Origin: an uncultured virus (IMG/VR IMGVR_UViG_3300021958_000026)
Taxonomy: Duplodnaviria > Heunggongvirae > Uroviricota > Caudoviricetes
Virus record (IMG/VR): IMGVR_UViG_3300021958_000026
Strand: one strand, 5' to 3'
Length of the DNA stretch: 64,000 nt
Every line of letters starts with the position of its first letter. Positions within the stretch are counted from its first letter, which is position 1. Shown here piece by piece: positions 11,408-62,200 of the stretch. Below the pieces are notes generated by a model. That model did not search any database. It was not told where the DNA came from and saw only the letters and a program-made list of their open reading frames with translations. The translations under genes and the position numbers were made by a program.

Positions 11408-11740
11408 TTAATTCTTATGTAGTTTAACAAAATATTCTGCATCAACAAGTACTAAAGGTTTGGTACGATTACGTTTGATAACTACAAGAGGTTCATACCC
11501 TTTGCAATTCTCAGTTGCCTGTTCGTATGCTTTCCAAACATTTACTGCTTCTTGATTCTTACATTCTACACTATAAGGGAAGATTTGTCTAGTCTGTTTT
11601 CCCATAATGATGTCCTCACCTTGAGAACCCATTGGACGTGACTCTATATCTTCTTCGTCTGCACCTAGTGTTTCAACTAAAAGACTCGCAAACCATTGTT
11701 GTAGTTTTCGTCCCTTAGCTTTCGCTGAACTTGTTTTCAT
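11408..11740 (-). CDS. Holliday-junction resolvase-like PD-(D/E)XK nuclease
   Basis: SAKAKGR, GEDI, SVECKNQE, PLVVIKRNR. Confidence 0.75.
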   Translation of the reverse strand: MKTSSAKAKGRKLQQWFASLLVETLGADEEDIESRPMGSQGEDIIMGKQTRQIFPYSVECKNQEAVNVWKAYEQATENCKGYEPLVVIKRNRTKPLVLVDAEYFVKLHKN

Positions 11741-12350
11741 AATCTTCAGGGTTGGGTGATTTTTGTCTTAGACATTCGTAAGGAATGTAGAGGTCACCTT
11801 CTTCTTCAGGAATGTAAAGGTGATTAATCATTGAACGGTTACAAGTGTCGATTGCATCGTAGACACTCTCCACTAAACTTTCTCCACCCAAGTTAAACGA
11901 GGTGTTGAAAATAATAGGAGTCCCAGTTCTTTCTCCAAACTTTTTAATTAGATTGTAGTAGACTGGATTGCCTTCTTCGGTTACGGTTTGAATTCGACAC
12001 GTACCATCTGCATGAACGAGAGAAGGAATCTCTTCGTATGCTTTGTCTTTAGCTTGAATTGCAAAAGACATGTAAGGTGAACCGTGTTCTTCTAATTGCA
12101 ACATATCAAAGTATTCACTTGCATGTTCTTTAAGAACACTACATGCAAAAGGTCTGTAGTCTTCTCTCTGTTTGACCTCGTTGACAATTTGTTTTGCTTC
12201 AGGATGACGTGGGTCAAATATGATGGAACGATTTCCTAATGCACGTGGGCCCCATTCAGACTGACCTTGATAGATTGCAACGATTTGTTGGTCATCAATG
12301 AGTTGGTCTAAGACCTCATCCATATCACGAATAATATTTGTTACAATCAT
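11715..12350 (-). CDS. Carbamoyltransferase C-terminal (YrdC-like) half, NodU/CmcH family
   Basis: EWGPRALGNRSII.DP, RPFA, HADGTCRIQTV, NTSFNLGGE. Confidence 0.9.
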   Translation of the reverse strand: MIVTNIIRDMDEVLDQLIDDQQIVAIYQGQSEWGPRALGNRSIIFDPRHPEAKQIVNEVKQREDYRPFACSVLKEHASEYFDMLQLEEHGSPYMSFAIQAKDKAYEEIPSLVHADGTCRIQTVTEEGNPVYYNLIKKFGERTGTPIIFNTSFNLGGESLVESVYDAIDTCNRSMINHLYIPEEEGDLYIPYECLRQKSPNPEDYENKFSES

Positions 12351-13540
12351 TCTTCTTCTCCATTTAATGTTTCAGTTACTTCCTCAACGATTTTATCCTC
12401 TAAGTGTCTTGCAAGATTTAATGTAACTCCAACTGCAGTTCCACCATCGTGTGCAATAGGGTCAACGAAAAATTCTACATCAGGGAATCGTTGCATGTAC
12501 TTATAATTGTTTGTACAGTTCAACGAGTAACCGCCTGAGAGGACGATTTTCTTAAGGTCAGGGTTTAGGTCTAATGCACGTTGAATAATTGCACAGGAGT
12601 GTTCTAAGGACTCCAGTTCACATTGTTGTGCTACTGTATGTCTAGAAAACACATTGTCTGTAATCGGTTGAGGTGCATAAGATGCCATACCCATAACCTT
12701 ACCTGCTGCACGACCTTTTGTATCACATCCTAATGCATAGGACAGATTACTAAAGTTCATACCACATGAGGGTAGGGAAGTGAACACTGTTGGTACACCT
12801 TCAATCTCAACTTCTAAATCGTCAGGACAATCCAAACAATTTTCTAACATGTTAACAAACCCATCAGCTTTCCACTCACTTAATCCTCTATGATTAGAGA
12901 GTCTTTGCCATTGTAACTTGGGTTCTGTGTGTTTAGAATCGATACGATAGATGGATTCAATTTCTTGATAATTAGGATAACGTTCATAGTGTCTCATGGC
13001 ACCACCACCGTCCCATGCGATTGCAATCACTGGTTCATCGTCTGCATACCAAGGTGAGAAATAATATCCACACTCTGCATGATACAAATGATGTTCAGTT
13101 TCAAAATGATATTTGTCCACTCCAAGTTGTTGTGCCATCTTGTCATGGATAGTGTTATCACCGTCTAGTAGTTCTTCCTTAATCGTAATACGAGGTTTTG
13201 CACCTTTAACATTGAACTCTTCCATGATAAGTTCAAGACGACTACGAGTTACTTGTTCGTGTGCAAAGGCATTTGCAATATCGATTTGTAGTCTACGGTC
13301 TTGTTTAACTTCTTCAGATAAACCTAAGAGAAGAACTCTACGGTCAAAGGATGCAAATGCAAGGTGTTCAGGTGTTTCAATACCACGTTGAACAATGGTT
13401 AAGAGTTCTGCTTCACTCTCTGAAGGTGACCAATACTTGTCACGTCTGTGTCTTTCTTCTTCCCACACATTCGTAATCTCACCGTCTTTAAAGGTAACAA
13501 TCGAAGTATCGTGTGAAGAATTAATCGCAAGAATTTCCAT
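12347..13540 (-). CDS. Carbamoyltransferase N-terminal (Kae1-like) half
   Basis: HDTS, EEERH.R.K, HHLYHA, DGGG, GKVMGMASY, LSGGYSLNC..N, DGGTAVG. Confidence 0.9.
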   Translation of the reverse strand: MEILAINSSHDTSIVTFKDGEITNVWEEERHRRDKYWSPSESEAELLTIVQRGIETPEHLAFASFDRRVLLLGLSEEVKQDRRLQIDIANAFAHEQVTRSRLELIMEEFNVKGAKPRITIKEELLDGDNTIHDKMAQQLGVDKYHFETEHHLYHAECGYYFSPWYADDEPVIAIAWDGGGAMRHYERYPNYQEIESIYRIDSKHTEPKLQWQRLSNHRGLSEWKADGFVNMLENCLDCPDDLEVEIEGVPTVFTSLPSCGMNFSNLSYALGCDTKGRAAGKVMGMASYAPQPITDNVFSRHTVAQQCELESLEHSCAIIQRALDLNPDLKKIVLSGGYSLNCTNNYKYMQRFPDVEFFVDPIAHDGGTAVGVTLNLARHLEDKIVEEVTETLNGEEE

Positions 13541-43347: not shown

Positions 43348-44652
43348 TTATTTACTTCTCTTTGCAAGTAATTGTGCTTCTTTCCATGCAAGTGATTGTT
43401 TGTTTGCAGGGAACTTACTTGTCCATGTTAACATCTTACCGTATAGTGCATCCGATTTCTTAATCAATGCCTTGTGGTCATCGTTGTTTAGAATCTCAAT
43501 AAAGTCTTTCTTAAACAACTTTCTAAAATAGTCTACGTTCTTTTGTGATGCATTCCAATCTGCAGTTACCACTTCTTTAGGTAACTTTCTTGCACGTTCA
43601 GAGTTTCTTTGTTGTGCAAAATCTAGTGAAGTGTTAACGAATACCATCTTGTATTCGTATCCTGCTTTATCTAATAGGTTTTTATAAGATACAATTTTAC
43701 TTGCCTTTGCACCTGTAGTGTCAAAGACCATACCAAGTCTTCCTCTTAGATACGCATCCATTTGTTTTGCAGTAATTTCTTTTGCACGACTTCTGATTGG
43801 GTCTCTTAGGTCTGCATCCATGTTTCTCAAATCAAGACCAAGTCCTGCTTTCTTTAAACCGTTCTCGAATGCTTTGTCGGTGTTAACAATCTTAAGTCCT
43901 AGATTGACTAGGTTTAATTGATCCACCACAGTTGATTTACCTGACCCTGGCCCACCCATAAGGAATACTGCTTTGAAGATGCCTGGGTCATAGACACCCT
44001 CTGTAATCAAATCTTCTACCATGTACTGAGGTAGGTGTTGTAAGTCTTCTGTTAGACCCATTCCTTTACGGATATCTTTGTAAAGTTTCTGTGCAAATCG
44101 TTGTCCTGTTTTGGGTACTCCCTCTTTAAATGATTCGAAGTCACCCTTTTCTGCAAACTCTCTCATCTTAGATGCACTCATTCCTGACACATCATCTGCA
44201 TCAGGGTCACGTTCACCAGCAGAGACTATCTGAATCTCATCAAACTTATAGAAACCGTGTCTACCTTTTACTGAGTTATATTTTTTGATGATAGTATCGA
44301 ATTCTCTGACCCTATCTGACCCTACTACCATTCTAATCTTAGTGTAACCTTTGTCATGTAAGAAGGTGAGGATTTGAAAAATCTGTTTTACATCTGCATC
44401 TATTACATTAACTTGTTTACCGAAGAATGCTTTTAGATACTTAACTTTATCTTTGTGTGACAGCGGGTTCTTTACTTTATCATTTGAGTGTGAAGAAAAT
44501 AACAATGCATCACCGTATCCCTTCGCAACTTTTTGAAGTCTGTCTACTAACTTTGCATGTCCTGTAGTTGGAGGATTGAATCGACCAAAGGTGAACACTG
44601 CACCTTTACCTTTTGCTTCTGATAACCAACTTGTAAAATTTTTATTCGCCAT
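43348..44652 (-). CDS. HIGH-family nucleotidyltransferase fused to a P-loop (zeta/AAA_33-like) kinase
   Basis: TFGRFNPPTTGH, VVGSDR, MSASKMR; GGPGSGKS, VFDTTG, RNSER. Confidence 0.85.
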   Translation of the reverse strand: MANKNFTSWLSEAKGKGAVFTFGRFNPPTTGHAKLVDRLQKVAKGYGDALLFSSHSNDKVKNPLSHKDKVKYLKAFFGKQVNVIDADVKQIFQILTFLHDKGYTKIRMVVGSDRVREFDTIIKKYNSVKGRHGFYKFDEIQIVSAGERDPDADDVSGMSASKMREFAEKGDFESFKEGVPKTGQRFAQKLYKDIRKGMGLTEDLQHLPQYMVEDLITEGVYDPGIFKAVFLMGGPGSGKSTVVDQLNLVNLGLKIVNTDKAFENGLKKAGLGLDLRNMDADLRDPIRSRAKEITAKQMDAYLRGRLGMVFDTTGAKASKIVSYKNLLDKAGYEYKMVFVNTSLDFAQQRNSERARKLPKEVVTADWNASQKNVDYFRKLFKKDFIEILNNDDHKALIKKSDALYGKMLTWTSKFPANKQSLAWKEAQLLAKRSK

Positions 44653-45025
44653 CTTTCGTATCACCTTGTTTTTTATTCTTCATTTGTTCTTTTTTACGAA
44701 TCATTGGTAAAAGTTTCTTTGCGAGTTTTTTGATTGCAGACTTCTTCTTGTCTAACTTCTTTTCTAGTGCTTGTTTTCCACTCATACCTAGGTCACTCTT
44801 ATCTGTGTCTTTCAACATCTTCTTTGCGACCATATTACGTGCTTGTTTCTCTGCACGTTTCTGTAACTTTGCAGGGTCAAGATTCTTCTTCTTCATTGCC
44901 TTTTTACGTTTTGCAAGAATCTTATGTTTGTTCTTTTGGAATGCTTTCTTTTTCTTCAGACGAGTTTGCATAGAGTCTGCTTCTTGTATCTCTTCCCAAA
45001 TTTCTCTGAATGATTTAAGTTCCAT
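44642..45025 (-). CDS. Lys-rich basic protein
   Basis: MELKSFREIWEE...KLQKRAEKQAR...KKLLP; ATAAATA promoter. Confidence 0.65.
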   Translation of the reverse strand: MELKSFREIWEEIQEADSMQTRLKKKKAFQKNKHKILAKRKKAMKKKNLDPAKLQKRAEKQARNMVAKKMLKDTDKSDLGMSGKQALEKKLDKKKSAIKKLAKKLLPMIRKKEQMKNKKQGDTKDGE

Positions 45026-45029
45026 ATTA

Positions 45030-46238
45030 CTATTTATCCCAATTTTTTGCAGCGTTAAAATTATTTTGACTGAATTCCATCCTGTCAACTAACTTAACTG
45101 CCTTACCTTCTTGGTCAATTGCAACATATCCTTCAGGATTTACTGCTTTAAATCCTGTGGACGTTTTAACAAAGGTTCCAATACCTTTAACTCTGTTTAA
45201 TCCTTCTATGATAATCTGTTTTGACACTACCATCAACTCTTGGAATTTGGTTAGTGCATCAATCATAGACTTCAAACCTCTGAGTTCATTATATAACTGT
45301 TCACCAATCTCTCGTTTGATGTTCTTAGTCTTTTCTAGTTTAACTTTTGCGACTACCTTATCTCTCCAGTAGTTTTCAAAGTGTTTTAGATATCCGTTGT
45401 AGTTTGGTTTAAAAATACCAGCACGAATCTGTGCATTGCAATATGTTTTATAAGTTGCACCTGCACCTTTCTTTTCTATTGCACGTTGAACTTCTCTGAA
45501 TTTTTCGAGGTCTTTCTTTTTGATTTTGTGGAATTGTTTTCCGACTTCTGTGAGGTTGCGTGATAAACTGACCGTCTCCTTTGCTGTGAGAGTTGAGTTG
45601 CCCGAAACATCCTTATACGTTGCATCATCCATCCATACGTCTTTTGACGAACCAAGTTTAGAAATATCTGCCCCAAAGGATGCAGAAAGGTCTTCTATTG
45701 TACCACCTCTATATGTAGTATGGAAGACGATTCCTAGTTTTGCTGAAGCAATTTTTTTACCTAATTCAGAATTAGTCTGCACTCGATACACTATAGTGTT
45801 AGGCCCGAATGCAATATAGGACTCAAAGTCGTCCTTTATCATTTTCTTATCTTTTTCTGTGAACATCAAATCACCTTGGAGTATTTCATCACCCCAAGAT
45901 AGTTTGGATAGGTATTTGAATGAATCTAAAAACTTGGATTCTAGGTCACCTGAGAGTTCAGGTGCATCTTTGATTTCTTGTTCTGAAGTGTAAAATAATG
46001 GTGTTTGATTGAATAGTGATTTCTTTGCAACGAAAAATCTTCCGTCTTCAGGATGTTTCCCACAAAAAATTGCAGGGGCACCATCCCATTTCACTGTCAT
46101 GTTGAACCCTTTCTTTGCATTACCTTTCATCATGTCACGAAGACTTAATAAAAAGTACACAGATGCACGACCACCATTAATTCCGTTATTAATGATTTCG
46201 TCTTCTAGGTGTTCTAAATGTAAATTTTTGACTGCCAT
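45030..46238 (-). CDS. Conserved T4-like protein (DUF6267-like; ligase-type KxDG motif)
   Basis: NLHLEHLED, TVKWDGAPAI, QGDLMF, PEGYVAI, KLVDRMEFS. Confidence 0.75.
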   Translation of the reverse strand: MAVKNLHLEHLEDEIINNGINGGRASVYFLLSLRDMMKGNAKKGFNMTVKWDGAPAIFCGKHPEDGRFFVAKKSLFNQTPLFYTSEQEIKDAPELSGDLESKFLDSFKYLSKLSWGDEILQGDLMFTEKDKKMIKDDFESYIAFGPNTIVYRVQTNSELGKKIASAKLGIVFHTTYRGGTIEDLSASFGADISKLGSSKDVWMDDATYKDVSGNSTLTAKETVSLSRNLTEVGKQFHKIKKKDLEKFREVQRAIEKKGAGATYKTYCNAQIRAGIFKPNYNGYLKHFENYWRDKVVAKVKLEKTKNIKREIGEQLYNELRGLKSMIDALTKFQELMVVSKQIIIEGLNRVKGIGTFVKTSTGFKAVNPEGYVAIDQEGKAVKLVDRMEFSQNNFNAAKNWDK

Positions 46239-46910: not shown

Positions 46911-46987
46911 TGGCGACCTGTAGGGGACTCGAACCCCTGACCTCTGCCGTGACAGGGCAGCGTTCTAACCAACTGAACTAACAGGCC
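46911..46987 (-). tRNA. tRNA-Asp(GTC)
   Basis: GGCCTGT...CTGCC CT GTC AC GGCAG...CCA. Confidence 0.95.
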
Positions 46988-47062
46988 TGGCACCCTGTAG
47001 GAGAATCGAACTCCTGTTGCATGGATGAAAACCATGTGTCCTAACCACTAGACGAACAGGGC
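46988..47062 (-). tRNA. tRNA-Glu(TTC)
   Basis: GCCCTGT...CATGG TT TTC AT CCATG...CCA. Confidence 0.95.
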
Positions 47063-54839: not shown

Positions 54840-55113
54840 CTTTCTCCACTTGATGTTGTATGAGTTCCACTAAAATGTCACCCATAAGTTTTTGTAAGTT
54901 TGCATCTTTATTTAGTTCATCTATGTCTGCACTTTCTGGCGCTTTAACAATGTTTCGTTGAAAATTTAAATGTTGTTTACCTTCAACAAATTGAACTTTA
55001 CCATATACAAAAATGACACCCTCGTAGGGTGCCTGTGTGATTTCTATTCCTGTCATGTTGAGTTTATCATTGTCGACAACTCTGTACACTCCAGTGTCAA
55101 ATAATTCGGTCAT
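54802..55113 (-). CDS. Conserved hypothetical protein
   Basis: GIEIT..PYEGVIFVYGKV...MGDILVELI. Confidence 0.7.
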   Translation of the reverse strand: MTELFDTGVYRVVDNDKLNMTGIEITQAPYEGVIFVYGKVQFVEGKQHLNFQRNIVKAPESADIDELNKDANLQKLMGDILVELIQHQVEKDDAGTSADNMDD

Positions 55114-56450
55114 AGGATTTCTCTCCAAATATAAGTAGGTTCAGATGTGGTAGAGTCAAATATGTTTGGGTGTGACATTAAAGCACTTCTGTAAGGAGTC
55201 CATTTAATTCCTCTACCCCATCCCATATGTCCAAAAAGTTCTGATTTGGTTATAGAACCATGTGTTTTTACAATTTCAATAAGTTCTTCTAGTTTTTCAG
55301 TTTCACTCATTCTATGAGTGTCGTCAACAATAATTTCAATATCTTCAATCATCTTTTCCATTTCATTCTTATATAATAGATTGTCCTTTAACCATTGTTG
55401 ACCTATTCGTGAACGTTCATTTCTATGTTGTCCATCATCCAAGTGTTTGTTGAGTAGTGTTAAGGCGTCTTCATCTGTTGTAAAAAATTCTGCATTACCC
55501 TGTAGTTCATGGTAATAAGCACCATCATAAAAAATATAAGGGCACCCATTCATCAAACCATCAGTTGCAGCTACACTCCAACCACCATACTTTTGTTGTG
55601 GTGCAAATCCAACCAAACAATTTCTAAGTTTGTTATAGTATCCTCTTTTGTCAAACTTTTCATTTGTCATGTACTCACGTGGTACATCACCTTCAAACAA
55701 AGGTATCCACACTTTAAAGTCTTGTCTTTGTGTATATAGTTTATCCATCAATGAGACAAAATGGTCAAAGTGTTTGTATGCTTCACATCTATGATTGAAT
55801 ACAATAACCCTGTCAGGTGAGTCATTTGGTTCTACAATCTCCTCTTCTCTAACACCTAGATGCTGTACTTGTAGTATCTTATCCAAATCAGTTATTGTAG
55901 ACTCATTAAACCTTTGTTTTGCTTGTTCTAGTACCATCCTCTTTTGTTCTTGTGTGTTGATGTAACACTTCTCGTATTCTAAGAGACCAAGCATATTCTG
56001 ATTAAATGCGCCCTTAAACCATGCAACAATATGGTCAAAGTCAAACCAATGAGAATACCCCATAACCTTAGGTGTATGATGTGTTAGATTATACATTGTG
56101 TTAACTAGTTGATGTGTATGTTCAGGTAAATGCGACATCACGATATCAAAATCTTTATCATGACTAAGCAAAGTTTTCATGTGCATTACATCAAAATGAC
56201 TTCTCATTGCAGGAGGATAAGTCGGTAAAGATGCAAACATTTGTTCTGTGTTGTCGAAGGTCAACCCATCAATATACTCAGGAGAAATAATATGCCAAAA
56301 GAAATTATGTCCTTGTGTTTCACGAATCATATTCTTTAACACTTGAACGTAAGAATCTTTTTCCAAATCTTTCTGCCATGTGATGTTAGGATACACTAAA
56401 ATCCTAATTGTTTTTGCAATCTCTTGGTCTGTATAAAATTTATCTAGCAT
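55110..56450 (-). CDS. GT-B glycosyltransferase-like protein with C-terminal wHTH-like extension
   Basis: DFDIVMSH, VFNHR...K, WSVAATDGLMNGCPYI; C-terminal GSITKSELFGHMGW. Confidence 0.65.
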   Translation of the reverse strand: MLDKFYTDQEIAKTIRILVYPNITWQKDLEKDSYVQVLKNMIRETQGHNFFWHIISPEYIDGLTFDNTEQMFASLPTYPPAMRSHFDVMHMKTLLSHDKDFDIVMSHLPEHTHQLVNTMYNLTHHTPKVMGYSHWFDFDHIVAWFKGAFNQNMLGLLEYEKCYINTQEQKRMVLEQAKQRFNESTITDLDKILQVQHLGVREEEIVEPNDSPDRVIVFNHRCEAYKHFDHFVSLMDKLYTQRQDFKVWIPLFEGDVPREYMTNEKFDKRGYYNKLRNCLVGFAPQQKYGGWSVAATDGLMNGCPYIFYDGAYYHELQGNAEFFTTDEDALTLLNKHLDDGQHRNERSRIGQQWLKDNLLYKNEMEKMIEDIEIIVDDTHRMSETEKLEELIEIVKTHGSITKSELFGHMGWGRGIKWTPYRSALMSHPNIFDSTTSEPTYIWREIL

Positions 56451-56457
56451 AATAAAA

Positions 56458-56532
56458 TGGAGCGGATAGTGAGAATCGAACTCACATTCCCTGTTTGGTA
56501 AACAGGAGTAATAACCGTTATACTATATCCGC
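56458..56532 (-). tRNA. tRNA-Gly(ACC)
   Basis: GCGGATA TA GTATAACGGTTATTAC T CCTGT TT ACC AA ACAGG GAAT GTGAG TTCGATT CTCAC TATCCGC T CCA. Confidence 0.92.
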
Positions 56533-56925
56533 TTATAACTTAATTCTATCCCTCAACGATGATGTTGAAAATGAATGTTTTCTGTTAGTGTAGAACACTT
56601 TAATCGGTAGTTCCTCACCTGTGAAGTGTTTGTCTTTATAGTCTTCACCTACAAATCTAACATCTATAGGTGTCGACTCAAGCAAGTCTAATAGACTTTG
56701 TTCAGTGTCATATGGTATCACTTCGTCTACATATTTCACTGCATTTAATTGTACAAATCTCTCGTAGACAGATTGTACTGGTTGATTCTTTTCTTGTCTG
56801 TCGATAGATGGGTCTGTCTGTAATCCTACAATAAGATGGTCACAGTTTTCTTTTGCCTGTTTTAACATAACCACATGACCTGCATGTAAGAGGTCAAATG
56901 CACCACATGTAAATCCTATTGTCAT
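56533..56925 (-). CDS. Glycerol-3-phosphate cytidylyltransferase (TagD-like)
   Basis: GAFDLLHAGH, LIVGLQTD, ER...VKYVDEV, STSSLR; start corrected to MTIGF. Confidence 0.85.
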   Translation of the reverse strand: MTIGFTCGAFDLLHAGHVVMLKQAKENCDHLIVGLQTDPSIDRQEKNQPVQSVYERFVQLNAVKYVDEVIPYDTEQSLLDLLESTPIDVRFVGEDYKDKHFTGEELPIKVFYTNRKHSFSTSSLRDRIKL

Positions 56926-58034
56926 CTTATTATATCTATCTTGTTCATGGTTTCCTGATTCCATACTTCTAACTCTGTTCTCAGTCTACCTTGTTGTTTA
57001 ACATTGTCATATCTTTTCGATGCATGTTTCTTCCACCATGCAATGACATTTTCAAATTCAAATCTATCAAAGTTCTCAGCTTTATTTAGCGTTTCTGTTT
57101 TACCCAATAATACATCACGTACATTTGTGTAACCATACTCTGACATGTAGAATCGTTTCTGTGTCGTTACATCTTGTGCAGTATTCATCACTTTACAAAA
57201 GTGTTCATATGCAGTAGTGTCATATTTTTTAAGATTTGACTTAATAATACCCACCATCTTGGTCTGCATTTTAAGTTTACGTGATGATGCACCTTTATGA
57301 ATCAATGGTTCGCTATCATTTCGTGTTTCAAACCAATCTCTTAATTCAAAGTATATTTCTTCGCCAAGTGTCAGAAGAAATTGACTTTGTGTATCTCCTT
57401 TATATCTTAGATACGGTCTCATACCATCGTACATACTTGCACCTTTGATGTTACCATACAAAGATGTAGTTTCAAATAAACAAAACTCTGTATTATATTT
57501 CTCATTTAACATTCTACGACTTGCATGAGAACAACACACAGCCGCAAGAAGTTTACCACCAAGATAATTAAATCCGAATGGTTGTACAGGGACAATATTA
57601 AATCCCATGATTGCACGTTTGTTGAAGATATCTAAGTCAGGTGTCTGACCAAGATAGACATTACGTGGTTTTGAGTTAATTAGTGGTGAACCAAAACGAA
57701 TGAACCCAACTACAGTATTAGTGTTGGTTTCTTTCACCACAAGTTTTAAAGTCTTGCCTGGATTTTCATCAGGTGAAAATGATGCAACCTTTTCAATCAT
57801 TGCATCAAAGGTTTCATTAGGAAGTTTTGCAACTTCGAAATTCATGTCCATAGGATGCATATTATGTTGTTGGAACATGTCATCTTCAAGTCCAAAACCA
57901 AGCAATGGTGCAGGTAAGTCTTTCACCCTTTCAATTTTTCTTACACGAAAATAATCATCAATACGATTAAAGTCATGGAAGTATTCCATAACTTTCGTTG
58001 CAACTTGAATTGTGTCTTGTTTAGTTAGTTCCAT
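56922..58034 (-). CDS. DUF4338/DruA-like (GNAT/Mom-related) protein
   Basis: VGFIRFGSP...PR, IVPVQPFGFNYLGGKLLA, ETTSLYG...SMYDG. Confidence 0.55.
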   Translation of the reverse strand: MELTKQDTIQVATKVMEYFHDFNRIDDYFRVRKIERVKDLPAPLLGFGLEDDMFQQHNMHPMDMNFEVAKLPNETFDAMIEKVASFSPDENPGKTLKLVVKETNTNTVVGFIRFGSPLINSKPRNVYLGQTPDLDIFNKRAIMGFNIVPVQPFGFNYLGGKLLAAVCCSHASRRMLNEKYNTEFCLFETTSLYGNIKGASMYDGMRPYLRYKGDTQSQFLLTLGEEIYFELRDWFETRNDSEPLIHKGASSRKLKMQTKMVGIIKSNLKKYDTTAYEHFCKVMNTAQDVTTQKRFYMSEYGYTNVRDVLLGKTETLNKAENFDRFEFENVIAWWKKHASKRYDNVKQQGRLRTELEVWNQETMNKIDIIR

Positions 58035-59657: not shown

Positions 59658-60266
59658 TTATCGTTTTTTACAACGTTGTGATGCACGGTCAATTACCTGT
59701 AAGTTGTTATGTACTACGTATGCAGTCAATACAAAGGGCAGAACCATATCTCCATATGTAAGTGAGTCTTCTTCCTCTAGAGTATAGAATGGTGATAAAA
59801 ATAATGTCTTGTGTAATATCAGTCTATCAAAACTAGGTACTTCAGGTAAAAGGGGATTTGCTTCAAAGACACAATCATAATCCATCCCTCTGTCAGTTGT
59901 CCAAACATCTGCAAATTGTAATAACCAAAATGCAGACATTGTGTATGTGTCTACACGTGGTCTTGAATCAAAGGGTATAGACCTCAATTGATTCGGATTT
60001 TCCTTTAACTTTAATCGAATCGACTCTTGTAAAGAATCCATCTTGACACTTTCCAGCAGTTGTGGATGATAGCAACACTCGTACCCCCTCGTAATTGCGA
60101 GTCTGTCCTTCGAGTCTAGATGCCAAGTTGACGGCGTCTCCAATGACGGAATAGTCAAATCTAAGTTCTGACCCCATGTTTCCGACAATGCATTCGCCTG
60201 TGTTGATACCGATACCAACATCAATCCTAGGAAGACCCATCTCTTCAAGTTCTGTAATAAGTTCAT
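59658..60266 (-). CDS. Exported/membrane protein (DUF5658-like C-terminus) overprinted on the cyclase 3' end
   Basis: Signal peptide MNLLQNLKRWVFLGLMLVSVSTQANA; LQFADVWTT...EANPL motif. Confidence 0.6.
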   Translation of the reverse strand: MNLLQNLKRWVFLGLMLVSVSTQANALSETWGQNLDLTIPSLETPSTWHLDSKDRLAITRGYECCYHPQLLESVKMDSLQESIRLKLKENPNQLRSIPFDSRPRVDTYTMSAFWLLQFADVWTTDRGMDYDCVFEANPLLPEVPSFDRLILHKTLFLSPFYTLEEEDSLTYGDMVLPFVLTAYVVHNNLQVIDRASQRCKKR

Positions 60267-61809
60267 CTGCTTTTTCTGAAATTTCCCTTGCAGATTTAAC
60301 TGCCATACCTGCGTGATTTTCACAGTCTAAGGGAGCATTCCAAAACGCCATGATACAATCTCCCATATACTTGTCGATGGTTCCACCGTTTGCAAGTATA
60401 ATTTTGGTCATTGTGTCTAAGTATTTATTAATAAGTTCGACTAAACCTTCAGGGTCATTGTTGTTTTTGTAGTATTCTGACACTGGAGTAAACCCACAGA
60501 TGTCCATGAACAAGAATGTCATCTCCTTTCTTTGTCCACCTAACACTAACATGTCAGGGTTGTCTTGTAATTGTTTGACCATGTCAGGAGATAAATACTT
60601 TTGGAACTGTTTTCTAATCTGTTCCTTGAGTTGATAAGTCTTATAGTATTGATTATATGATGCGTGACCGAAAACTATCAAGGAGGCGATAGATGAGTAG
60701 AAGGTATCGAAAAGAACGAGACTTGAAGTCCACAAATATAAACCCCCACCCACCTGAAATCCTACAACACTTAGACAACCTAACACCCCAAGAGTTGTGG
60801 GAAGTTTGTAGACCATTACCAACGTTATTAGAAGGACTGACAGAAGAAGAACAATTTCTAAAAATTCAAGATAGTAGGATTGTTGTATTTGAACTTCTTG
60901 TAAGACGGTTTGGAGAATTGAGGCTTGAACTTCGTGGGGATACATTGTACCCACTGGAGTTGAAACTGGATTATTCAGACCCTCTGCCGTTAGACCCCAA
61001 ATTAGAATCTTATCCTGAATATCTGACTGCGTAAGGTCAACTGCTGAGATTCTCTCAAAGTGATTCCAATAGGAGATTAATATGTCTCCTGTTGGAGTCG
61101 TTTCTATAGGGTCTTCTCTCCCCATACGAATCCATTCAATACCTACGTCTTCTGTGACTCTTGTCTGATAATTTGGTTGGTCGTAATATGCACGTAACAC
61201 TTCTAACACTATCGATGGGTAAATCTCATCGTTTGCAGTAACAATCAACGGCGCACTACGCACCGTTCCGTCAAAGTTTGGTGTACCACTAAATGGTGGA
61301 GTTGCAGTTGTGACTCCTACACCGTATGTGTTCTCTTGTAAGATAGGAAGAGGTGCAACGATTCCTGTAAAATTCCACGCAGAATTTTTTATGTCTCCAC
61401 CACCGAACACTGAAGTGTTAACAAATGGCGCAGAACCTTTTTGTATTTGTGCAGATGGAGCTGCAGATAAAATTGTAAGTCTGTTGATTAGTCCCTCTGC
61501 AAGTTTTAAATCTTCCTCAGGTTGTCTATCAGGTTTTGCAAAGAGTTGTGTAAACACATGAGTGTTAGTGTAATGAGAGTTGAGAAGTAAATCAGTGTAG
61601 ATACCTCTCTTGAATGGATATTGTCCGAACTCTTCTAGTGACCTTTCGTCTATGTCTACTAAGACAATATCATTACTGTGAATCTTTTCTTGTTGTTGGT
61701 GTAAGAAATCGAACCATGACCACTGAATGTTTTCTACGATGTATGGATTCCAAACTTTGAGTCCGACTAGTAACGCAATAGTTACTAAGACTGTTTTCCA
61801 ACTATACAC
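59968..61809 (-). CDS. CHASE2-domain class III adenylate cyclase
   Basis: TM-CHASE2 (IVLVDIDERSL..GQYP, DGTVR)-3TM; FMDICGFT, DKYMGD, GIGINTG, DYSVIGDAVNLASRLE; Lys/Asp pair indicates ATP specificity. Confidence 0.93.
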   Translation of the reverse strand: MYSWKTVLVTIALLVGLKVWNPYIVENIQWSWFDFLHQQQEKIHSNDIVLVDIDERSLEEFGQYPFKRGIYTDLLLNSHYTNTHVFTQLFAKPDRQPEEDLKLAEGLINRLTILSAAPSAQIQKGSAPFVNTSVFGGGDIKNSAWNFTGIVAPLPILQENTYGVGVTTATPPFSGTPNFDGTVRSAPLIVTANDEIYPSIVLEVLRAYYDQPNYQTRVTEDVGIEWIRMGREDPIETTPTGDILISYWNHFERISAVDLTQSDIQDKILIWGLTAEGLNNPVSTPVGTMYPHEVQASILQTVLQEVQIQQSYYLEFLEIVLLLSVLLITLVMVYKLPTTLGVLGCLSVVGFQVGGGLYLWTSSLVLFDTFYSSIASLIVFGHASYNQYYKTYQLKEQIRKQFQKYLSPDMVKQLQDNPDMLVLGGQRKEMTFLFMDICGFTPVSEYYKNNNDPEGLVELINKYLDTMTKIILANGGTIDKYMGDCIMAFWNAPLDCENHAGMAVKSAREISEKADELITELEEMGLPRIDVGIGINTGECIVGNMGSELRFDYSVIGDAVNLASRLEGQTRNYEGVRVLLSSTTAGKCQDGFFTRVDSIKVKGKSESIEVYTL

Positions 61810-62200
61810 GTTTTGATTCCCAATCCTCTATTGCCTTTCTGATTGAGTCTTCTGCAAGAACTGAGCAGTGTAATTTGATTGGTGGTAGTTCTAAAATTTC
61901 TGCAATCTCTTTATCTTTAATTTGTTTTGCTTCTTCTATGGTTTTACCTTTGAGTAAATCTACGAATAGTGAACTACTTGCGATTGCACTTCCACAACCA
62001 TAAGTCTTAAACTTCACGTCTACTATCATTTCGTTCTCGTCAAGTTTAAGTTGCAGTTTCATTACATCACCACAAGCAGGTGCTCCTGTCATTCCTGTTG
62101 CAACGTTTGGGTCGTTGGGGTCGAATCTACCAACTGAGAATTGTTCAGGTGCATTGAGAACACCTTCGAATCTATCGATTACTTTTTGTGAATATGGCAT
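61802..62200 (-). CDS. iscU: Fe-S cluster scaffold IscU
   Basis: GAPACGDVM, FKTYGCGSAIASSS, LPPIKLHCSVLAE. Confidence 0.93.
   Translation of the reverse strand: MPYSQKVIDRFEGVLNAPEQFSVGRFDPNDPNVATGMTGAPACGDVMKLQLKLDENEMIVDVKFKTYGCGSAIASSSLFVDLLKGKTIEEAKQIKDKEIAEILELPPIKLHCSVLAEDSIRKAIEDWESKRV

Follow-up and report, generated by a model that had tools for sequence, protein, structure and literature searches.

The locus raises the question of whether a phage tRNA-Gly gene with the anticodon ACC can be real and, if it is, what such a tRNA would do. Bacterial tRNA-Gly species carry the anticodons GCC, UCC or CCC, and the gene analysed here, found in a 64,000-nucleotide stretch of DNA from an uncultured virus (referred to throughout as the window), falls outside that set. 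In the parts that bear on this anticodon, PMC4928997 asks why eukaryotes lack tRNA-Gly(ACC), and PMC11066159 describes unmodified A34 tRNAs as few.

The gene occupies positions 56458-56532 on the minus strand, is 75 nt long with an encoded CCA, and is supported by ARAGORN, by Rfam family RF00005, by its sequence and by covariation with relatives. ARAGORN reports it as a tRNA-Gly with the anticodon acc at position 34, one of nine tRNAs in the window, all of them on the minus strand, and its RF00005 score is 63.8 bits, the gathering score being 29 (Rfam E 1.6e-11). The anticodon A34 C35 C36 lies at 56497-56499 (minus strand; ARAGORN and sequence), A34 being base 56499 of the window (T on the plus strand). 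The 7-bp acceptor stem opens with G1-C72, C2-G71 and G3-C70, and the discriminator is U73; all five pairs of the anticodon stem are Watson-Crick (C27-G43, C28-G42, U29-A41, G30-C40 and U31-A39) and the loop reads U32 U33 A34 C35 C36 A37 A38 (UUACCAA). The elbow is normal: G18 G19 are in place and the T-loop reads TTCGATT. The T stem (GUGAG/CUCAC) contains three G-C pairs. Folded as a single strand, the sequence gave -22.8 kcal/mol against -13.5 +/- 3.1 for shuffles, a value matched by 2 of 200 shuffles. The original prediction of an intact Gly-type cloverleaf with an ACC anticodon holds in every detail that it described. The non-ribosomal cell-wall tRNA-Gly species of Staphylococcus have lost G18 G19 and have weakened T-stem pairs; these features are missing from the window tRNA, which keeps G18 G19 and has a G-C-rich T stem. 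In PMC9976931, the relevant part of which is its Table 1, bacterial glycine identity is assigned to U73, G1-C72, C2-G71, G3-C70, C35 and C36, with base 34 absent from the list, and all six of these elements are present in the window tRNA when read from the minus strand. It shares its cloverleaf and identity set with bacterial-type elongator tRNA-Gly and differs from it in the anticodon.

The source phage is an uncultured T4-like myovirus. The window has a G+C content of about 37%, and 79 of its 82 long ORFs lie on the minus strand; its family-B DNA polymerase finds its best match, at 48% identity, in Synechococcus myoviruses, and the other replication genes encode a DnaB-like helicase, a RecA/UvsX-like protein and RNase H, accompanied by ribonucleotide reductase and many auxiliary genes. 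Megablast of the segment 55000-58500 returned no close relatives in GenBank. The public runs that contain this phage carry the metagenome labels estuary, marine, freshwater and soil, and in the nearest record (G001) the tRNA-Gly region is uncovered and five other tRNAs are present. Among the auxiliary content we noted a 613-aa protein in which a CHASE2 sensor domain is fused to an adenylate/guanylate cyclase domain (59968-61809, minus strand), with a NifU-like gene next after it (61802-62200) and peroxiredoxin and Hsp20 genes nearby; a carbamoyltransferase divided between two ORFs with a 4-nt overlap (11715-13540, minus strand; N-terminal part 12347-13540, C-terminal part 11715-12350); and a 438-aa protein (43348-44664, minus strand) in which a cytidylyltransferase-like domain is joined to an AAA/zeta-toxin-like kinase domain, its gene lying next to that of a DUF6267 protein (45030-46238).

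The original prediction had suggested a resemblance of the tRNA body to T4 tRNA-Gly(UCC), and alignment bears it out: the window gene is 80% identical to the tRNA-Gly genes of T4 and T2 with 75 of 75 nt aligned, and the T2 record AJ880101.1 labels its own copy UCC. The phage genes have in common the glycine identity elements, the encoded CCA and a T4-like setting; they differ in that base 34 of the window tRNA is A, not U. The location of the window gene also sets it apart from the tRNA genes that T4-like marine phages carry: it is solitary within a protein-coding operon and is not part of a tRNA cluster.

We asked whether the anticodon is kept in related phages. Nine IMG/VR loci were retrieved through the downstream 446-aa protein, and among 11 related loci examined the tRNA-Gly was ACC in nine and UCC in one (L010, at the same site), with no tRNA in the remaining one. 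The ACC genes have several body types, with stems that differ by compensatory changes, and the loop is constantly UUACCAA. In a set of 14 tRNA-Gly genes (10 ACC genes of at least seven types and four UCC genes) all 280 of 280 pair cells were paired and both sides changed in 16 of the 20 pairs; none of 500 shuffles reached the observed covariation.

A wider census of IMG/VR used a single pattern of D-arm plus anticodon loop with N at position 34, and returned 99 phage contigs with a tRNA-Gly body, in which position 34 was G in 50, T in 27, A in 21 and C in one. The 21 ACC contigs came from 21 different datasets, and they fall into at least four separate clusters in an approximate tree drawn from 55 distinct 72-mers in which base 34 was masked; these sequences are short, and the tree carries no support values. 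When the same pattern was applied to cellular genome contigs, position 34 was C in 85, G in 28 and T in seven of the 120 matches listed, and A34 was found in none of these 120. A metagenome scan with the exact window-type body and N at position 34 found one contig, with A. Base 34 is constant inside each cluster, and the loop outside it (U32 U33 ... A37 A38) is identical in ACC and UCC relatives; UCC is retained in the sister phages L010, L152, L153, L154 and L189. With nucleotide identities of 78-81%, three syntenic lineages lie at roughly equal distances from one another, and since two of them carry ACC (the window type and the L011 type) and one carries UCC (the L010 type), base 34 must have changed at least twice, between U and A only.

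The base itself was checked in independent data. In an independent DNA run (X11, record 3) a contig is identical to the window over 56458-57492 and so has the same base at 56499, and contigs from three RNA libraries (X15 record 12, X16 record 18 and X17 record 28) also carry the genomic base; these are assembled contigs, from which rare variants drop out. Taken together, the relatives, the IMG/VR census, the independent DNA run and the RNA-library contigs rule out an assembly or sequencing error at 56499. Because ACC is kept across diverged relatives it is a real variant, and we conclude that it is a genuine, conserved phage variant that, for the T4-type body and among the contigs listed, is phage-specific.

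Some observations concern the movement of the gene and the occurrence of A34 elsewhere. In the relative L020 (1315-1546) a tRNA-Gly(ACC) that is 92% identical lies at a different place, directly upstream of a tRNA-Glu/tRNA-Asp pair beside a helicase gene; the tRNA-Glu/tRNA-Asp site compared with it in the window is at 46911-47062. The DNA contig of run X11 departs from the window precisely at the 3' end of the tRNA-Gly. The gene appears to be mobile, or to mark a recombination junction. Other rare A34 tRNAs were seen in tRNA blocks of the IMG/VR phage contigs L156, L168, L180 and L166, namely Ser(AGA), Ser(ACU), Thr(AGU) and Leu(AAG), as well as Arg(ACG); A34 occurs in 25 of 429 phage tRNAs, a figure whose Gly(ACC) part is biased by the choice of loci.

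If the gene is real, which codons would it serve? GGT had been named as the dominant glycine codon, and a count over 82 window ORFs agrees: out of 1084 glycine codons 630 (58%) are GGT, 321 (30%) GGA, 89 (8%) GGG and 44 (4%) GGC. Seven of the nine window tRNAs form Watson-Crick pairs with the codon used most in their own family: tRNA-Leu UAA (TTA, 30% of the family), tRNA-Arg UCU (AGA, 54%), tRNA-Ser UGA (TCA, 37%), tRNA-Ala UGC (GCA, 81%), tRNA-Thr UGU (ACA, 42%), tRNA-Glu UUC (GAA, 71%) and tRNA-Gly ACC (GGT, 58%). The other two, tRNA-Pro UGG and tRNA-Asp GUC, are cognate to the second codon of their families. The ACC anticodon therefore obeys the same rule as the other tRNAs of this phage. 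As a further detail of codon usage, the 81% share of GCA that matches the phage tRNA-Ala(UGC) is a share of 929 alanine codons, and AGC and CGC each make up about 1% of their own codon families in the window.

In none of the 12 stretches with ACC was there a second tRNA-Gly. A near-identical 87-kb contig that extends past the window (G002) has a single tRNA, Gly(ACC), and in the roughly 141 kb of this phage lineage that the window and G002 represent, Gly(ACC) is the only Gly tRNA. The same is true of a 162-kb contig of another lineage (G003), which has a block of 22 tRNAs. GGT makes up 73% of glycine codons in L146, a 20-kb stretch of that 162-kb contig, and 63% in L149, from the sister contig G004, with GGC at 1% in each. 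In G003, a contig with 28% G+C, ARAGORN also called a tRNA with the anticodon CUA ('tRNA-Pyl'; L121:258-329), which is of the amber-suppressor type and could point to recoding of TAG.

The original prediction had gone on to propose that the anticodon is tuned to GGU. As a description of the window, where GGT makes up 58% of glycine codons, this fits; as a driver of the change it fares less well. Glycine codons were counted, over no more than 20 kb each, in the window and in 47 of the 99 census contigs, which were the longer ones and included several for each tRNA type. At the level of lineages the GGT share was 0.558 for ACC (n=5) against 0.450 for the others (n=34), which is not significant (p=0.074), and the GGC share was 0.070 against 0.163 (p=0.117), with GGC also below 0.10 in 14 of the 34 non-ACC lineages. 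The UCC sisters L152, L153 and L154 have GGT shares of 0.54, 0.59 and 0.51, and the ACC loci that share the gene block (the window and L032-type lineages) are no different at 0.50-0.60. A34 is tolerated and is stable within clusters, and a selective advantage over U34 in the UCC form would be hypothetical; the two or more changes of base 34 fit near-neutrality as well as they fit selection.

The reading that we favour, and to which we give somewhat better than an even chance, is that the gene encodes a functional, charged elongator tRNA with an unmodified A34 that reads GGU best. The tRNA would be transcribed together with its flanking genes and then cut from the transcript. Co-transcription fits with an RNA-library contig (X15 record 12) that spans 56421-56988 and bridges both gene junctions around the tRNA, although such contigs could be DNA or precursor RNA. 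The host GlyRS would then glycylate the mature tRNA, recognising U73, C35, C36 and the three outermost pairs of the acceptor stem and ignoring base 34. A34 would remain adenosine and form a Watson-Crick pair with GGU, the commonest glycine codon of the phage, and GGC and GGG would be read more weakly by two-out-of-three reading. Because all four GGN codons specify glycine, A34 carries no risk of miscoding, which would account for the repeated appearance in phages, and the tolerance there, of a change from U to A at position 34.

Published work on engineered tRNAs lends itself to comparison. According to the portion of PMC4928997 that cites Boren et al. (1993), GlyRS charges both the ACC and the ICC forms and an engineered ACC tRNA supports elongation, and in the E. 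coli experiments described in part of PMC11066159 an orthogonal tRNA(ACC) read GGU at 1.3%, GGC at 0.40% and GGG at 0.33%, with GGA reading below detection and no inosine signal. These tRNAs have the same anticodon as the phage gene and were charged, read GGU best and showed no inosine; they are laboratory mutants, in contrast to the phage gene, which is natural, conserved and widespread. A cellular parallel in the same source (PMC11066159, in part) is Mycoplasma tRNA-Thr(AGU), where a four-codon box is served by an A34 tRNA that is inosine-free in Mycoplasma; there, however, the amino acid is another, the genome is a cellular one under reduction and there is no phage context. A point against a GGU decoder is that GGA accounts for 30% of the glycine codons in the window, a codon that A34 reads weakly if at all on the E. 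coli data in that part of PMC11066159.

The surroundings of the gene, which the original prediction had overlooked, bear on its role. The 5' end of the tRNA abuts the stop codon of a 143-aa cytidylyltransferase-like ORF (56533-56964, minus strand; PF01467, 59.9 bits; phrog_7878), and upstream of this lies the gene for a 370-aa protein of the DruA/DUF4338 family with a predicted GNAT fold (56922-58034, minus strand; PF14236). On the other side, the ATG of a 446-aa ORF (55110-56450, minus strand) begins 7 nt past the CCA. This ORF is syntenic in relatives and may be a glycosyltransferase, for which a sub-threshold Glycos_transf_1 match (E 0.055) is a lead only; it had no Pfam or PHROG match at threshold, and a sequence search against solved structures gave only chance-level flavodoxin rows. 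The PF14236 match of the 370-aa protein is close to the limit (27.3 bits against a cut-off of 27), its homologue in Pelagibacter phage HTVC008M scores 40.9 bits, and the family is large, with 6327 proteins at E<=1e-5 and precomputed PF14236 assignments in most of the 120 homologues listed. The only PHROG match of the protein is phrog_19197, of unknown function, and a sequence search against solved structures returned no hits. When folds were compared, phage Mu Mom nominally came out as the best match. Mom (PF25680, PDB 8bv8) modifies adenine in DNA with Gly-tRNA(Gly), whereas the window neighbour belongs to the DruA family PF14236 and has no sequence similarity to Mom: the PF25680 profile did not match it at E<=1, hhalign gave probabilities of 0.6% and 0.2%, and none of 74 window ORFs scanned had a PHROG 'Mom-like' match. 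Phage Mu is not known to carry a tRNA gene. HTVC008M and cyanophages have homologues of the 370-aa protein, of which one, 49% identical, is named 'methylcarbamoylase mom' in GenBank. The tRNA-Gly sits within a module made up of a GNAT protein with a possibly Mom-like fold, a cytidylyltransferase and a putative glycosyltransferase.

The order DruA-like gene, cytidylyltransferase, tRNA-Gly, 446-aa ORF is found in the window and in L124, L144, L139, L140, L142 and L147, all with ACC, and in L154 with UCC; in L152 and L153, where the DruA-like protein is 45-47% identical, a tRNA-Gly(UCC) follows 4 nt after the DruA-like gene. We surveyed 3 kb on either side of 80 DruA-like genes, 63 of which had at least 1 kb of sequence downstream. 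At six of these loci there was a tRNA, in all six a tRNA-Gly (five ACC, one UCC), two of the five ACC genes being of another body type and lying about 600 nt upstream; at the other 74 there was no tRNA within 3 kb. Conversely, nine of 47 tRNA-Gly contigs carry a DruA-like gene (six ACC, three UCC and no GCC), and none was found on the ACC contigs G003 (162 kb), G004, G011 and G013, all of which are fragments.

A potential explanation for this arrangement is that the tRNA is mainly a glycine donor, in which Gly-tRNA(Gly) would feed the neighbouring DruA-family GNAT protein for a Mom-like transfer onto DNA or another acceptor, with the cytidylyltransferase and the putative glycosyltransferase extending the modification. 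Such a role would free base 34 from decoding constraint and so would explain the switching between U and A. It would agree with the gene order being kept in both ACC and UCC relatives, with the finding that every tRNA near the surveyed DruA-like genes is a tRNA-Gly, with the GenBank name of the 49%-identical homologue, and with HTVC008M, which has a DruA-like gene and Gly(ACC) as its sole tRNA. As described in the part of PMC13219725 concerned, the glycine that Mom attaches to adenine in DNA is taken from Gly-tRNA(Gly), for which each of the three E. coli isoacceptors will serve, and that precedent too speaks for a donor. Set against this are the 74 of 80 DruA-like loci that have no tRNA within 3 kb, the four fragmentary ACC contigs on which no DruA-like gene was seen, the elbow and G-C-rich T stem, which are of the ordinary ribosomal type, and the fixation of base 34 in each cluster, where no drift is seen. 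We regard donation as a serious rival to decoding, or as a second job of the same tRNA, but consider it unlikely.

Two further explanations, both raised by the original prediction, concern A34 itself. Were A34 converted to inosine by the host TadA or by a phage enzyme, ICC would read GGU, GGC and GGA, together 92% of the glycine codons, and a single tRNA for all three would suit a phage with one Gly tRNA. The loop has U33 A34 C35 and A37 in common with bacterial tRNA-Arg(ACG), in which a genomic A34 becomes I34 through TadA (the TadA substrate discussed in part of PMC11066159), but it has U32 and C36 in place of C32 and G36, which places UUACCAA outside the tRNA-Arg(ACG) type required of TadA substrates. 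In the sections of PMC11066159 that report these assays, an ACC tRNA was unmodified by E. coli TadA and any inosine was seen in only three of 15 A34 tRNAs, and the corresponding part of PMC4928997 finds that eukaryotic ADAT deaminates tRNA-Gly(ACC) poorly, owing to its anticodon loop. A phage-encoded enzyme was sought in Pfam among 78 window ORFs, which represent a partial genome, and no CMP/dCMP- or TadA-type deaminase family was found. The genomic base at 56499 in the three RNA-library contigs also points away from inosine, if weakly. We therefore judge the inosine suggestion, which these results go against, to be very unlikely. Phage tRNAs can evade tRNA-targeting defences by changes in the anticodon loop, and with this general precedent A34 might be a decoy change by which the phage tRNA escapes a host defence that disables tRNA-Gly, be it an anticodon nuclease or another system aimed at tRNAs. 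The restriction of ACC to phages for this body type (21 of 99 viral contigs against none among the 120 cellular contigs listed) would be in keeping with this, but there are sister phages with UCC in the same place and the remainder of the loop is the same in ACC and UCC relatives, and escape from a nuclease seems to us extremely improbable.

The reading of the gene as an elongator tRNA for GGU can be taken up in a cultured phage. In Pelagibacter phage HTVC008M (NC_020484.1) Rfam found a lone tRNA, at 49.5 bits, which ARAGORN calls tRNA-Gly(acc); it lies just upstream of the ribosomal protein S21 gene (L128:1501-1574, about 91140-91213 of NC_020484.1), and its T-loop and D-loop are unusual. NC_020484.1 has no annotation at this position, and Table 1 of PMC7029224, the part of that paper that bears on this, gives zero tRNAs for HTVC008M. 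A phage tRNA-Gly(ACC) is undescribed in the literature that we searched, and the supplementary tRNA tables of phage surveys may contain ACC.

The literature treats tRNA-Gly(ACC) as an anticodon avoided by life; in phages it is a natural, conserved gene. Should the tRNA-Gly, in its ACC or UCC form, be integral to a DNA-hypermodification module in an abundant group of ocean T4-like phages, built from a Mom-like DruA-family GNAT, a cytidylyltransferase and a glycosyltransferase, with a transferase and not the ribosome as its main client and base 34 free to alternate between U and A, which we think doubtful, this would be the first phage known to bring its own tRNA for a tRNA-dependent DNA modification. 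The presence of Gly(ACC) as the sole, unannotated tRNA of HTVC008M, a cultured phage of the cultured host Pelagibacter HTCC1062, makes these ideas testable in an existing phage-host culture, and because matched ACC and UCC versions occur at one genomic site, both A34 decoding in vivo and the avoidance of this anticodon by cells become directly testable.
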